Source: a virus (taxonomy: Duplodnaviria; Heunggongvirae; Uroviricota; Caudoviricetes). Taken from it: a stretch of DNA of 32,607 bases. Shown in pieces: positions 9,001-15,000 of the stretch. The stretch lies in IMG/VR virus record IMGVR_UViG_2585427748_000009; one strand, given 5' to 3'. Position numbers: made by a program. The first letter of the stretch is position 1, and each line of letters starts with the position of its first letter.

Positions 9001-12000
9001 AATATTGATCTCCTGAAGGCTGCCTGCCGTCAGGAGGTGTGGATCAACCCTATAGATGCGCAGAAACGTGGGATTGCCAACGGCGATATGGTGCGGGTGT
9101 TTAACCATCGTGGCGAAGTTCGGCTACCAGCCAAAGTAACACCACGTATTCTCCCTGGAGTTAGCGCTATGGGCCAGGGAGCCTGGCACGAGGCCAATAT
9201 GTCTGGCGATAAAATCGACCATGGCGGCTGTGTGAATACGCTAACCACTCTGCGCCCTTCACCACTGGCGAAGGGAAACCCGCAGCACACTAATCTGGTC
9301 GAGATCGAAAAAATATAACCCACGACAACCATAAATTCTGGCATGACATTTTGTTTGAAAAGCAATAAGTGAGTAATGATGAAAATCCATACCACAGAGG
9401 CGCTCATGAAGGCTGAAATCAGCCGTAGAAGTCTGATGAAAACCTCCGCACTTGGCAGTCTTGCGCTGGCAAGCAGTGCTTTCACTCTGCCATTTTCCCA
9501 AATGGTCCGGGCGGCAGAGGCTCCGGTAGAAGAGAAAGCGGTCTGGAGTTCCTGCACCGTTAACTGCGGGAGCCGCTGTCTGTTACGTTTGCATGTGAAA
9601 GATGACACCGTGTACTGGGTGGAGTCTGATACGACAGGTGACGACGTCTACGGTAATCATCAGGTTCGAGCGTGTTTACGCGGGCGCTCTATCCGCCGAC
9701 GGATGAATCATCCTGATAGGTTGAAATATCCCATGAAGCGCGTCGGCAAGCGCGGTGAAGGTAAATTTGAACGGATAAGTTGGGACGAAGCCCTGGATAC
9801 CATCAGTGATAATCTTCGGCGGATCCTGAAAGATTACGGCAATGAGGCTGTACATGTCCTGTACGGAACAGGCGTAGATGGCGGAAACATCACCAACTCA
9901 AACGTCCCGTACCGTCTGATGAACTCTTGCGGTGGTTTTCTCAGTCGCTATGGCAGCTACAGTACCGCACAGATCAGTGCCGCAATGAGTTATATGTTCG
10001 GTGCCAATGATGGCAACAGCCCGGATGATATCGCCAATACGAAACTGGTCGTTATGTTCGGAAATAACCCGGCAGAAACGCGGATGAGCGGCGGTGGTGT
10101 CACTTACTACGTCGAGCAAGCCCGCGAACGTTCAAACGCACGCATGATCGTCATCGATCCACGTTATAACGACACTGCTGCCGGGCGTGAAGATGAATGG
10201 CTGCCCATTCGCCCTGGCACCGATGGCGCACTGGCCTGTGCGATTGCCTGGGTACTGATTACTGAAAACATGGTCGATCAGCCATTTCTCGACAAATATT
10301 GTGTTGGTTACGATGAAAAAACGCTGCCCGCCAACGCACCACGTAACGCGCATTATAAAGCCTATATTCTGGGCGAAGGGCCTGACGGCATAGCTAAAAC
10401 GCCGGAATGGGCAGCAAAAATCACCAGCATCCCGGCAGAAAAAATTATCCAGTTGGCACGAGAGATCGGTTCAGCAAAACCTGCTTATATTTGTCAGGGT
10501 TGGGGGCCACAACGACATTCCAACGGCGAGCAAACATCCCGCGCTATTGCCATGCTTTCCGTTCTCACCGGCAACGTCGGCATAAACGGCGGCAACTCAG
10601 GCGTACGCGAAGGTAGCTGGGATCTGGGGGTAGAATGGTTCCCGATGCTCGAGAATCCTGTTAAAACGCAGATTTCCGTCTTTACATGGACAGATGCCAT
10701 CGACCATGGTACGGAAATGACCGCGACCCGTGATGGTGTTCGTGGAAAAGAAAAACTGGATGTCCCCATCAAGTTTTTATGGTGCTACGCCAGTAACACA
10801 TTGATCAATCAACATGGCGACATCAATCACACCCATGAGGTGCTTCAGGATGACAGCAAGTGCGAGATGATTGTTGGCATTGACCACTTCATGACGGCCT
10901 CGGCTAAGTATTGCGATATCCTGTTGCCCGACCTGATGCCAACAGAGCAAGAAGACCTTATCTCTCATGAATCTGCAGGGAATATGGGCTATGTGATCCT
11001 CGCCCAACCCGCAACCTCAGCAAAATTTGAACGCAAACCCATCTACTGGATGCTGAGTGAAGTCGCCAAACGCTTAGGACCAGACGTTTATCAAACCTTT
11101 ACTGAAGGTCGCAGTCAGCATGAATGGATCAAATATCTCCATGCGAAAACGAAGGAACGTAACCCTGAGATGCCCGACTACGAGGAGATGAAAACGACCG
11201 GGATCTTTAAGAAAAAATGCCCGGAAGAACACTACGTCGCTTTCCGCGCATTCCGTGAAGATCCACAGGCAAACCCGTTGAAAACACCTTCGGGGAAAAT
11301 CGAAATTTATTCTGAACGACTGGCGAAGATTGCAGATACCTGGGAATTGAAAAAAGATGAAATTATTCATCCCCTTCCTGCGTATACCCCAGGTTTTGAT
11401 GGCTGGGACGATCCCCTGCGGAAAACCTATCCACTGCAGTTAACGGGCTTCCATTACAAAGCGCGTACCCACTCCAGCTACGGCAATATTGATGTGTTAC
11501 AGCAGGCCTGCCCACAAGAGGTGTGGATCAACCCCATTGATGCTCAGGCACGCGGTATCCGTCATGGCGATACCGTGCGGGTATTTAACAATAATGGAGA
11601 AATGCTGATTGCCGCAAAAGTGACTCCGCGTATTCTGCCTGGCGTTACCGCCATCGGGCAAGGTGCGTGGCTTAAAGCGGATATGTTTGGTGACCGGGTC
11701 GATCACGGCGGCAGTATCAATATTCTGACCTCTCACCGCCCTTCACCGCTGGCAAAGGGAAACCCGTCGCACAGCAATCTTGTCCAGATCGAAAAGGTTT
11801 AAGGAGTAGCCCATGACCACACAATATGGATTTTTTATCGATTCCAGCCGCTGTACTGGCTGTAAAACCTGCGAACTGGCGTGCAAAGATTTTAAAGTTG
11901 GTTACGTATCGTTTAAAATCAATTAGATAGCCCGTCATTTCTGCGCTCACACGTCCCAACATTGAAAAACATGCAAAGCTTTGTAAGCCGATGCAAAGCT

Positions 12001-15000
12001 TTGTGTGTCTCACTTTTGTCCCAATACCAATCCGAATCCACCCTTTGTCATCATTGAGAAATGGCAAGGAAGAAAAGGATGTTACTGCACGATTTGACAA
12101 ATCCGCCAGAGCTATCGCATACTGACCGCACTACAACGTCAGCGGTCAACCGCACCCGATAGCTTTGCGGCTTTTTTATGCCTGTTTACAGGTATCGCCA
12201 TATCAATGGCGGGTCGAGAGAGCCTAATACAATACCCTTTCGGGAAATACGCTCCGCCGTCTGACGCGGTAGTTGAAGCCCGCCACCCCACTAAGGTGGC
12301 AGTCAATACTAAAACGTCAGGAGTCATAATTATGACTAATCAACTCATTCCCGTTTTCGATGGAACCATCAACAACGAACCAGTTTTACTTTGCAATGCT
12401 CGCAATCTGCACGCTTTTCTTGGTATTGGTAAAATGTTTGCTCACTGGATCAAGGACAGGCTGGGTGAATATGGATTCGTTGAAAATCAAGATGTTGTTA
12501 TTGCTTGCCAAAATTGGCAAGCAAAAGGTAGAGGCGGTCACAACCGCAAGGAATACCACCTCACCCTCGACACAGCCAAAGAGCTTGCGATGGTTGAACG
12601 TAACGAAAAAGGCCGCCAGATACGCCGCTACTTCATCGAGTGCGAAAAGAAACTTCGCAACATTCAGCCAGTACAAACTGAGCAGCAATTCACAGCCGAA
12701 GAAATCATCCTCCTTTGCTACATGCAGCTCTGGATGGAAAAAGCCCAGGACCTCAGCAAACACCTGTATCCCATTATGAAAGAGCTGAACTCCTCATACA
12801 CGAACAAGCTGTATGACATTGCGTTTGAGACCATCTACATGGTGACGAAGAACAGAGACGCGCGACTAAGGGAGGTAACACATCTCGACATGTCAAGTTC
12901 CGTTATCCAGCGGGCCATGCCAATGCTGAAAAGTCTGCGGGCAAGACAATTTGAATTCTGAAACCAAAGGAGCTTCGGCTCCTTTTTTCATGCCTGAAGG
13001 AAAGGAAAATGGCAGATATCATCGACAATGCCGCTGAAATCGAAGAATTGCAGCGCAATCTCTCCCTGCAAAAATACAAATCCGATAGTAATGCCCCATC
13101 TGCTACTCATTGTTGCGAGTGTGGCGATCCGATAGATGAGCGGCGACGCCTGGCTGTTCGTGGATGCCGAGCTTGCGCCAGTTGCCAGCAGGATATTGAA
13201 CTTATCAACAAACAGAGAGGTGTGAAGTGAACATCAACACCACGATAACGATCGATACAGCCCTGAACACCGGCCTGGCGCTCCTTGGTTATTTCTACAT
13301 CATGTTCTGCAGCGGACGATGGCTGTCACTGTTGTTCATGAAAAAATGGAATAAACGCCGTAAGCAGGAGCAACGCCAGAAGGCAATGGATGCATTTTTC
13401 GAAGCCTTCGGGATTGACAGCATGGAACCAGGGGATCCAGCTCGCGCAATCAGCAGAGGGGGCGTAGTAATCCTTGTATATCGGAGTGAAGAGAAAAATG
13501 ACGATCACAAAACAACGTGTAGAAAAAATCATATATCGCCATGAAATGGGACTGAACAGCGATGTCACTGCCGAAGAGGTTTATGACCTGGCTGTACTGG
13601 CGCTGAATTTATCAAATATCGCAAACCTGAAGCGATACGAGCTTGATATGGATTGTTGTGACTCGTTCGGTCAGGATTGTGGCGCTGACATGACTGAAGA
13701 TTCTGATGGCGATTATGTTCTGTTTGATGACGTGGTTAAGTTGTTTGAGTTTGATACAACCACTCAAAAGTTAGAAATCCCGGCAAACGAGGCTGCCAGT
13801 GAGCAAGATTGACTATCAGGCACTGCGCGAGGCGGCGGAACAGGCAACGCAAGATGAATGGGTAGCATATATTTTGCCGGGTCATAACGGCATTTATCCT
13901 GCGCGCACGTCTGAGGGTAGGCATTGCGGATACTTTATTGACTGGCCTGGCATCTGTCAGGGGCGGGAGAGCATCAACATGAGCATCAGAACCTACGCAG
14001 TGAATTGCAATGACGCATGGCTAAACACCGAAGGTGATGACATCTCCGGCTCATACGTTAAGTACAAAGACCATCAGGAAGTGGTTGCCGCTCTTGAGGC
14101 CAAGTGCGCGGCGCTGGCAGCGGAGAATGCGGGAATAAAGTCTGCAATTCCAGAATCACGGGATATTGAGGATGACAATGACAATATGGATGACGTATCT
14201 CTCGCGGAAGACTTCGGGTTCAATCATGCAATAGAACGGATGAGGAGACAGATACCTGAAACGCCAACCACTGATGCTTTCCTGGCTGAAGTCCGGGCGC
14301 AGGGGGTGGATGCTGCTATAGAAGCTGCAAAAAATCTGGTGGCCCAAGAATATGAGTATAAGGATTTCAAAGCGGCGCAGAGTGATTGCTGTATGCACCC
14401 TGGTTCAGACCTGGTAGGGAAGGTTGAAATGACTGAGTGGTTAGTTGACTTTGCTGCCCAGCTTCGCAAAGGAGGCAACCAGTGAGCGAAATTAATTACC
14501 AGGCACTGCGTGAGGTGGCGGAACGTGCAATTCCAGCAATGGAACGCCTGTTAATGTTGCCAGCTGATGATGACTTGTTAAGTGAACAGGAACTTAAAGA
14601 TTACGGTGTGGATATTGATGCGCTCAACGCCTTCAAATTTCTGACCGGACCAGAAACCGTGCTGGCACTGCTGGATGAACGGGAAAGAAACCTGCAATAC
14701 ATCAAAAGCCGCGATCAGGAGAACGAGGATATTGCGCTAACGGTAGGGAAGCTGCGCGTTGAGCTTGAAGCAGAAAAACAGCGGGCAAAAGTTCTATTTA
14801 TGGAAAATGCTCGGCTTAAGTCAGGCATAGCCGGTCTGATACACCTCGGTATTCGATATGCAGATGTTGAGGTCATGAAAATTGCTGGAGATGCCCAGCT
14901 TTCTACCCCATGCACTGACAGCATCATAAACAGCATTGCAACAGGCATTCGCATCAAAGGAGAGTGATATGGCGTTAACACACCACGAACTCTGTCAGAT

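Follow-up and report, generated by a model that had tools for sequence, protein, structure and literature searches.

What do two identical, palindrome-bearing 14-mers do at the end of a prophage, between its junction with the host gene ynfG and an antirepressor-like gene (ant)? The initial annotation of this 32,607-nucleotide (32.6 kb) stretch of DNA, hereafter the window, placed the pair correctly and offered two readings: operators through which a dimeric repressor controls the antirepressor, or recombination-related binding sites. The two 14-mers and their palindromic cores are present as originally described; both copies are exact matches to ATGCAAAGCTTTGT and both contain the self-complementary CAAAGCTTTG:

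11971–11984, + strand: 14-mer copy 1, equal to decamer 2 of the row described below plus the first 3 nt of decamer 3
11991–12004, + strand: 14-mer copy 2, likewise made up of decamer 4 and the initial 3 nt of decamer 5

The window holds no exact copy of ATGCAAAGCTTTGT beyond these two; further matches require three mismatches and are no more frequent than in shuffled sequences. When 200 random sequences of the window's length were drawn from a first-order Markov model, only one contained an exact 14-mer direct repeat within 50 bp. The pair does not belong to a dispersed repetitive element: a 101-bp stretch with the pair is at least 99% conserved in 82 of 5,426 complete Escherichia coli genomes, as a single copy in each, and is recognisable also in P22-like phages. 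A third, partial copy had been proposed at 12161–12168. AGCTTTGC is indeed present there, but this 8-mer has a chance expectation of ~0.5 per strand and forms the 3′ side of an unrelated terminator:

12099–12178: long stem-loop with a U-tract (terminator), in the antirepressor module, z = −5.25

The antirepressor module, where this stem-loop sits, has no homology to P22, so AGCTTTGC does not count as a further family member.

The position of the pair is defined by the prophage junction, which consists of the following parts:

11813–11897, + strand: 5′ fragment of the host gene ynfG, cut short by the inserted prophage; matches K-12 ynfG exactly through ...gattTTAAAG and diverges thereafter
11891–11897, strandless: 7-bp common core TTTAAAG (crossover/overlap), common to attB and both junctions

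RefSeq genomes annotate the ynfG fragment as a truncated 4Fe-4S binding protein. TTTAAAG is the only sequence that attB (K-12: agatTTTAAAGatct) shares with both junctions, the one on the int side (caacTTTAAAGatct) and the one in the window (agatTTTAAAGttgg), and ynfG is the locus of all junctions examined, including 50 junction-spanning matches. The 14-mers are 83 and 103 bp away from the core, within the P arm of an attachment site that belongs to a P22-family lambdoid prophage (POCJ13-like) inserted in ynfG. In lambda terms, the junction is of the attR type and carries the arm that does not adjoin int. The genes for the cognate tyrosine integrase (Pfam Phage_integrase) and excisionase (Xis; Pfam HTH_17) sit at the opposite prophage end: in complete lysogens (JNE120442 and 05-3629) and in POCJ13, xis and int abut the other ynfG junction, ~59 kb away. 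The initial annotation was therefore right that a binding protein is not encoded in the window.

On the 260-bp attP of P22, arm-type, IHF and Xis sites have been mapped (Leong 1985; Smith-Mungo, Chan & Landy 1994; Mattis, Gumport & Gardner 2008). Window positions 11912–12029 match the P22 P arm with 82–87% identity over ~117 nt. The arm is ordered, outward from the core, as an IHF-like site, GTCCCA, a 48-bp gap and two tandem sites of presumed arm type:

11917–11929, + strand: IHF-like site AATCAATTAGATA with an A/T tract before it (candidate H site), a pattern match only
11953–11958, + strand: putative core-proximal integrase arm-type site GTCCCA, a motif found in both arms
12007–12012, + strand: putative distal integrase arm-type site 1, degenerate (GTCTCA), at a fixed offset of 54 from the proximal site
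12018–12023, + strand: putative distal integrase arm-type site 2, GTCCCA, at a fixed offset of 65, 11 bp past distal site 1

AATCAATTAGATA has one mismatch to WATCAANNNNTTR and is the sole such match in 11890–12040 on both strands. P22 repeats this layout, with GTCCCA on the core-proximal side, a pair of ATGCAAAG units at a distance of 20 bp and GTCCCA in tandem on the distal side. Its integrase (387 aa) belongs to the same family, and its Xis is likewise an HTH_17 protein whose gene overlaps int. The two sites differ in their core and target (TTTAAAG in ynfG here, the thrW tRNA gene in P22), in their neighbour (the antirepressor module here, gtrABC in P22) and in the first distal arm site, which is GTCTCA here and GTCCCA in P22. 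They also differ in the units themselves, which are identical and perfectly palindromic here, whereas the P22 pair (ATGCAAAGCCTTGC-N6-ATGCAAAGATTTGT, identically placed and spaced) agrees in 11 of 14 positions, and its palindromes are imperfect.

This comparison bears directly on the operator reading, according to which a dimeric repressor of the Arc/Mnt or HTH type would bind the palindromes and control the downstream antirepressor. Each copy does hold a perfect 10-bp palindrome, and the antirepressor-like gene begins ~330 bp downstream. However, the homologous arms of P22, phage L, epsilon34 and ENT47670 keep the 5′ half ATGCAAAG in both copies and break the palindrome (CAAAGCCTTG, CAAAGATTTG), so that the conserved feature is the direct repeat, not the dyad. 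The element also travels with int and att, including in phages that have no ant gene at this place; its neighbour is gtrABC in P22 and SfV and a tail-fibre gene in ES18 and the HK phages. Within the window, the strong terminator at 12099–12178 and a further element intervene before ant:

12208–12292: sRNA-like element, between the 14-mer pair and ant

The sole promoter-like site for ant (12094–12123) lies downstream of the pair, and no further 14-mer copy is found near the ant start at 12333. We therefore give the operator reading almost no credence; the 14-mer site is most likely of an ordinary, largely known kind, and not an antirepressor switch. The recombination reading, by contrast, is supported by the location of the 14-mers within the P22 P-arm homology and by the putative integrase arm-type repeats that flank them at fixed distances.

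Within an attachment-site arm, the 14-mers could themselves be the arm-type sites bound by integrase, being direct repeats near the core. The distribution of GTCCCA argues against this. P22-type sites carry a tandem pair of GTCCCA at the 3′ end of int (the P′ arm) and three copies in the P arm, and the P′ arm shows the same tandem 11-bp arrangement as the distal P-arm sites; the P22 P′ arm has no copy of the 14-mer. In HK542, GGCACAA replaces GTCCCA in both arms, in the same 2 + 1 + 2 arrangement, together with a divergent integrase N terminus, a divergent Xis and a changed segment between the arm sites. The switch to GGCACAA tracks the integrase N terminus, whereas a TGCAAAG-type element is kept outside the HK542 arm sites. 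Among 71 unique arms from viral contigs, 67 have a constant 48-nt gap and distal tandem sites at a fixed offset; the invariance of the proximal site across the collected arms is by construction, as the scan was anchored on proximal GTCCCA. The gap sequence is free to vary while the integrase-associated GTCCCA sites stay fixed. We infer from these patterns that the GTCCCA repeats are the integrase arm-type sites, and consider it very unlikely that the 14-mers serve as such.

Comparison of the 67 arms, which fall into 17 sequence subfamilies, reveals what is conserved in the gap: only a T(G) every 10 bp and phased A-tracts. Measured from the proximal site in representatives of the 17 subfamilies, offsets 9, 19, 29, 39 and 49 carry a T (usually TG), and offsets 13–16, 22–25, 33–35 and 42–44 carry A-tracts. 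In the window, this pattern takes the following form:

11962–12004, + strand: helically phased row of decamers TGnnAAAGnn (starts at 11962, 11972, 11982, 11992 and 12002), a proposed Xis binding and bending tract

The 14-mers are the best-matching two (decamers 2 and 4) of four to five TGnnAAAG units. The 20-bp spacing that had been taken to place both sites on the same face of the helix is correct, and it belongs to this 10-bp periodic row.

The arrangement resembles that of the lambda Xis sites X1, X1.5 and X2, on which Xis forms a cooperative micro-filament that bends the P arm. In both cases, direct repeats of 13–14 bp have a centre spacing of 20 bp with a weaker middle site at 10 bp, and lie in the arm away from int, ~60–105 bp from the core and beside Int arm-type sites; a small winged-helix excisionase binds them in lambda and presumably here. 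The two show no sequence similarity. In lambda, the Xis sites are bounded by P2 and the core, whereas here the proximal and the two distal arm sites bound the tract, and the P22-type Xis, whose binding here is presumed, is a larger protein (116–123 aa) of the HTH_17 family. P22 Xis reportedly leaves a footprint on the P22 P arm and bends it by ~137 degrees. Given the position of the decamers, the analogy with X1–X1.5–X2 and this reported footprint, Xis would be the protein contacting the decamers, and the best explanation, to which we assign a probability of roughly 0.6, is that the P-arm 14-mers are part of a tract that the HTH_17 excisionase binds cooperatively and bends. A winged-helix Xis made from the gene beside int, at the far end of the prophage, would assemble cooperatively along a single helix face of the decamers, in head-to-tail order, and bend the arm sharply. 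The bend would bring integrase bound at the arm-type sites to the core, driving excision and blocking re-integration.

The 14-mer sequence itself cannot be the Xis recognition code, as near-identical or identical N-terminal DNA-binding domains of Xis occur with five quite different gap sequences (for example, ATAGAAATTGGTCG...ATATAAAAGCCTTT in ES18). Gaps found with near-identical P22-type Xis domains share only the phased T/AAA skeleton. At longer range, Xis and the tract do vary together, as the different Xis and different inter-site segment of HK542 show.

The decamers also invite a different protein. Read on the − strand, those of P22, phage L and epsilon34 give TTGC-N6-TTGC(-N6-TTGC), and two ‘putative CII-binding sites’ are annotated at this place in the record of epsilon34, suggesting a site for a CII/C1-type activator at a promoter reading back across attP. 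In the window, however, the − strand reads TTGC-N6-TTAC-N6-TTGC, whose middle TTAC leaves no intact TTGC-N6-TTGC; the hexamer at the expected distance (TTGGGA or ATGGGA) is not −10-like, and a scan found no − strand promoter here. Most other subfamilies have no TTGC, and the transcript would be antisense to int, contrary to the logic of CII. An activator site is accordingly highly improbable, and the excisionase tract is retained as the preferred protein-level reading.

A hairpin accounts better than Xis binding for the palindrome and for the 14/14 identity of the copies. Both 14-mers and their flanks fold into one structure:

11969–12008, + strand (int-sense): 17-bp hairpin with loop AGCCGA (RNA fold)

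Folding is strand-biased: the + strand gives −23.7 kcal/mol and z = −3.42 (0 of 200 shuffles), compared with z = +0.19 on the − strand. Across 31 distinct related arms, 88.6% of cells pair, against 18–54% in slid controls. Six pairs are changed on both sides, a number that 1 in 500 shuffles reaches, and there are 21 compensatory cells (0 of 500 shuffles). These changes indicate that the complementarity is maintained by compensation in this lineage; a hairpin with such changes is seen in the ATGCAAAG superfamily. In the SfV clade, the stem is kept through C-G to U-A and U-A to C-G changes while the second unit is a poor direct repeat. Hairpins of unrelated sequence occur at the same place elsewhere, 10 of the 17 subfamilies having z < −2 on the + strand, and in the records of phages L, SfII and epsilon34 the depositors placed putative terminators at this point. 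The element also persists beside unrelated integrases in HK106, mEp234 and g341c, where the proximal part of the arm is missing; the hairpin part is portable. In HK106, it presumably follows a lambda-type sib/tI hairpin as a separate item.

The pair may exist mainly for an RNA hairpin in an int-sense transcript crossing attP, acting as a tI/sib-like terminator or RNA-processing site; in the lysogen, such a hairpin could also be a barrier to ynfEF read-through into the prophage, and it would be compatible with Xis binding. Several observations weigh against this account. Seven of the 17 subfamilies have no significant hairpin on either strand. The stem is A/U-rich, with G-C at 5 of its 17 pairs, and the nearest U-run (UUUU) begins 5 nt past it, which does not fit a canonical intrinsic terminator; a terminator scanner returned no more hits than in shuffles. 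Family-wide, G.U cells (~41) are hardly commoner than A.C cells (~34), leaving the transcribed strand ambiguous, and the much stronger terminator at 12099–12178 lies 100–170 bp farther. We regard a primary role as an RNA hairpin as a tenable reading, albeit one with less than an even chance.

The hairpin resembles lambda sib/tI in that it forms in the int-sense strand beyond the core, so that in both systems it is attached to int only in unintegrated DNA. For the same reason, it could be a built-in sib-like retroregulator or a read-through insulator. Lambda sib/tI, however, carries a U-tract and stands clear of the arm portion that proteins bind, whereas the hairpin here is embedded in the arm with no adjacent U-tract and is missing from ~40% of related subfamilies. 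Its role could be terminator-like or sib-like, and a second, RNA-level function compatible with Xis binding is possible. Somewhat doubtfully, we extend this to a large branch of P22-family sites, in which the same ~40 bases might be dual-coded, serving proteins as a phased array of binding sites and also forming an RNA (or single-strand) hairpin under selection.

These results map the end of a Shiga-toxin-type prophage to its ynfG crossover core, its presumed integrase arm-type sites and a likely excisionase tract, and the located att parts are useful for predicting the excision ability of such prophages. Across 67 arms in 17 subfamilies, the P22-type excisionase region conserves a periodic skeleton of one helical turn, not a fixed sequence, and many lineages lay a hairpin over that skeleton. 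Should the hairpin prove to regulate int or to insulate the prophage, lambda retroregulation would have a compact variant here, of modest interest and involving no new principle.

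The two identical 14-mers are a correct observation and not a chance one: ATGCAAAGCTTTGT occurs exactly at 11971-11984 and 11991-12004 on the plus strand, each copy contains the palindromic core CAAAGCTTTG described in the initial annotation, and only one of 200 Markov-1 random sequences contained an exact direct repeat of 14 nucleotides no more than 50 bp apart. A search of the window for further copies found no other exact one, and matches with three mismatches were no commoner there than in shuffles. The pair is not a dispersed repeat: 82 of 5426 E. coli genomes carry it, each of them once, and every junction examined with an arm carrying it is the prophage end in ynfG. 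An Rfam search with the pair returned nothing meaningful; a mir-19 match (26 bits) is spurious and merely reflects the hairpin that the pair forms. The features concerned are the following.

6892-9318, ynfE
9376-11802, ynfF
11813-11897, first 85 bases of ynfG, followed by prophage DNA
11969-11985 paired with 11992-12008, plus strand, 17-bp stem with loop AGCCGA, made up of the two 14-mers and their flanks
12099-12178, plus strand, long stem-loop CCGCCAGAGCTATCG...CGATAGCTTTGCGG, then TTTTTT (z = -5.25)

The heptamer TTTAAAG (11891-11897) is the sole sequence common to K-12 ynfG, the int-side junction of a complete lysogen and the window junction; it is a classical 7-bp overlap, and measured from its midpoint the 14-mer centres are 83.5 and 103.5 bp away. 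In ynfG, attB has an inverted repeat, CAAAGAT/ATCTTGG, around this core (window 11882-11904; locus L005, 1060-1085), whose halves may serve as core-type integrase sites; in attP, the flanks at these positions read AACAAC/GTTGGTT. The 14-mer itself, which resembles ynfG 11882-11897 at 13 of 16 positions, was considered as a core-type or pseudo-attB site and rejected because P22, whose target is thrW, has the same units, which are therefore older than the ynfG specificity.

At 97-100% identity, the prophage end matches the right end of Shigella phage POCJ13. The POCJ13 record begins just past the int 3' end, giving a circular phage order of xis, int, about 50 bp, core, arm and antirepressor module, an order in which the arm corresponds to the P arm of lambda. 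The opposite ynfG junction, ~59 kb away in complete lysogens, carries int and an HTH_17 xis that overlaps it, which is why, as had been remarked, no binding protein is evident in the window. RefSeq labels the xis of this prophage type as a truncated 'helix-turn-helix domain-containing' pseudogene (L006, the int-side junction, 659-1030; locus L141, 1259-1324); an intact 123-residue xis reading frame overlaps int, as in P22, and matches HTH_17. No relative came up when the PDB was searched by sequence with Xis. The far prophage end was not found in strain AST198, where the prophage is degraded. An uninterrupted reading frame of 2783 codons occupies window 16612-24963 on the minus strand of the prophage; its counterpart region in AST198 consists of LPD38-domain pseudogene fragments.

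Over window 11912-12029, identity to the P arm of Salmonella phage P22 attP is 82-87%. This attP spans 260 bp, and published work has mapped Xis, IHF and arm-type sites in it. P22 has ATGCAAAGCCTTGC-aaaccg-ATGCAAAGATTTGT at the matching position with unchanged spacing, its two units falling within about 21187-21230 on the complement of record BK000583. The 5' half, ATGCAAAG, is retained in both units of P22, L, epsilon34 and POCJ13 and the 3' half is variable; thus, the direct repeat is conserved and the palindrome is not. POCJ13 has a further ATGCAAAG in its P' arm, at the stop codon of int; with no conservation in P22, SfV or 2G7b, it was taken as chance. The hexamer GTCCCA occurs once before the units and as a tandem pair after them, and the P' arm carries a tandem pair with 11-bp spacing inside the int 3' end. 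In HK542, where the integrase N terminus and Xis are both divergent, GGCACAA replaces GTCCCA in both arms with the 2 + 1 + 2 layout kept, and the segment between differs. On this parallel switch in sequence, we take GTCCCA to be the putative arm-type site of the integrase; the stretch enclosed by the arm sites would be the place for another protein.

Viral contigs were scanned with an anchor outside the units, the proximal arm site GCGCTCACACGTCCCA, the invariance of which is by construction. Of the 71 unique arms obtained, 67 have their distal tandem sites at offsets of 54 and 65, counted from the proximal site; by sequence, the 48-nt gap sorts into 17 subfamilies. All 17 representatives have T (usually TG) at offsets 9, 19, 29, 39 and 49 and A-tracts at offsets 13-16, 22-25, 33-35 and 42-44, the gap sequence being otherwise free. 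The gap thus amounts to four or five decamers of the form TGnnAAAGnn, one helical turn apart. The window 14-mers correspond to decamers 2 and 4, and each runs three bases into the decamer that follows; the palindrome is partly an automatic outcome of abutting decamers (CAAAG-CT-TTG). The lambda Xis sites X1, X1.5 and X2 have a like geometry, a weaker site being flanked by two good ones that are 20 bp apart. The P22 Xis reportedly protects one region of the P arm in footprints and bends it by ~137 degrees. Near-identical Xis N-terminal domains are paired with five different gap types, among them that of ES18, which lacks any ATGCAAAG, and this counts against a simple recognition code. When Xis was paired with gap type among 125 loci with intact attP, the 15 that have xis upstream showed no covariation between Xis and the 14-mer. 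Any binding of Xis here would depend on the phased skeleton and DNA shape, and not on the 14-mer as such. The ES18 Xis N terminus is identical to that of P22, and its gap (locus L018, ~2530-2580) is of exactly the same length with a different sequence and a hairpin of its own, AAAGGC-N8-GCCTTT.

The hairpin formed by the 14-mers folds as plus-strand RNA at -23.7 kcal/mol (z = -3.42; 0 of 200 shuffles), and as minus-strand RNA it scores z = +0.19, since the plus strand has three G.U pairs. Across 31 distinct related arms, 88.6% of cells pair, against 18-54% in slid controls; six pairs have changes on both sides, a number reached by 1 of 500 shuffles, and 21 cells are compensatory (0 of 500). 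Several clades contribute to these changes: the SfV clade has C-G to U-A and U-A to C-G, one subfamily has C-G to G-C, mEp234 and HK106 have A-U to G-C, and a single sequence has C-G to A-U. Other subfamilies have hairpins of unrelated sequence at the same place; z is below -2 on the plus strand in 10 of the 17 and the remaining 7 have no significant hairpin on either strand. G.U and A.C cells are about equal in number family-wide, so that the counts point to neither transcribed strand. Putative terminators are marked at this place in the deposited records of L, SfII and epsilon34; no U-tract adjoins the hairpin, which is therefore not a canonical terminator. We regard the hairpin as genuine and under selection in this branch, and it is compatible with Xis binding.

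The proposal that the 14-mers are operators for the antirepressor-like gene is not supported: dyad symmetry is not conserved, the element stays linked to int and att where its neighbours are gtrABC or tail-fibre genes and does not track ant, and the 14-mers are separated from the ant start by a strong terminator and an sRNA-like element. The latter is an Rfam sRNA-Xcc1 match (RF02221; 12208-12292, plus strand; 53 bits, exactly the gathering score; E = 1.6e-08) just upstream of the gene start at 12333. The former, the 12099-12178 stem-loop, is a much better terminator candidate for int-sense transcripts crossing attP than is the 14-mer hairpin; its 5' half includes a promoter-like TTGACA-18-CATACT (12094-12123). 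The third partial copy, AGCTTTGC at 12161, is a real string, but about 0.5 are expected by chance per strand and it forms the 3' side of this much longer stem-loop; we exclude it from the family as a chance-level 8-mer belonging to a separate terminator hairpin of the ant module. A CII site, as annotated in epsilon34, draws on the decamers reading TTGC-N6-TTGC on the other strand; it was rejected, as the middle repeat in the window is TTAC and there is no -10 element.

The distal part of the element also adjoins unrelated integrases in HK106, mEp234 and g341c. This part, CACAAAGCCTTGCAAnCCnGTGCAAAGCTTTGTGnGnCTCAGTTTTGTC, is found in HK106 (locus L019, ~2480-2550), mEp234 (L017, 2490-2550), g341c (L016, 2495-2555) and HK542 (L010, 2490-2550), four loci with integrases of the lambda, 2851, HK620 and SfX types, and its left boundary is the same in all four, as if at a recurrent mosaic junction. 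The hairpin just before it in HK106 is presumably a lambda-type sib/tI, going by the lambda sequence. Beside unrelated integrases, the distal part may be either what is left of a mosaic junction or a hairpin that is portable.

The other suggestion of the initial annotation, recombination-related binding sites, is supported, the 14-mers being a component of a P22-type attachment-site arm, an already well-known kind of site. The 14-mer stretch is most likely an excisionase binding and bending tract on which, in this lineage, a hairpin has been overlaid.
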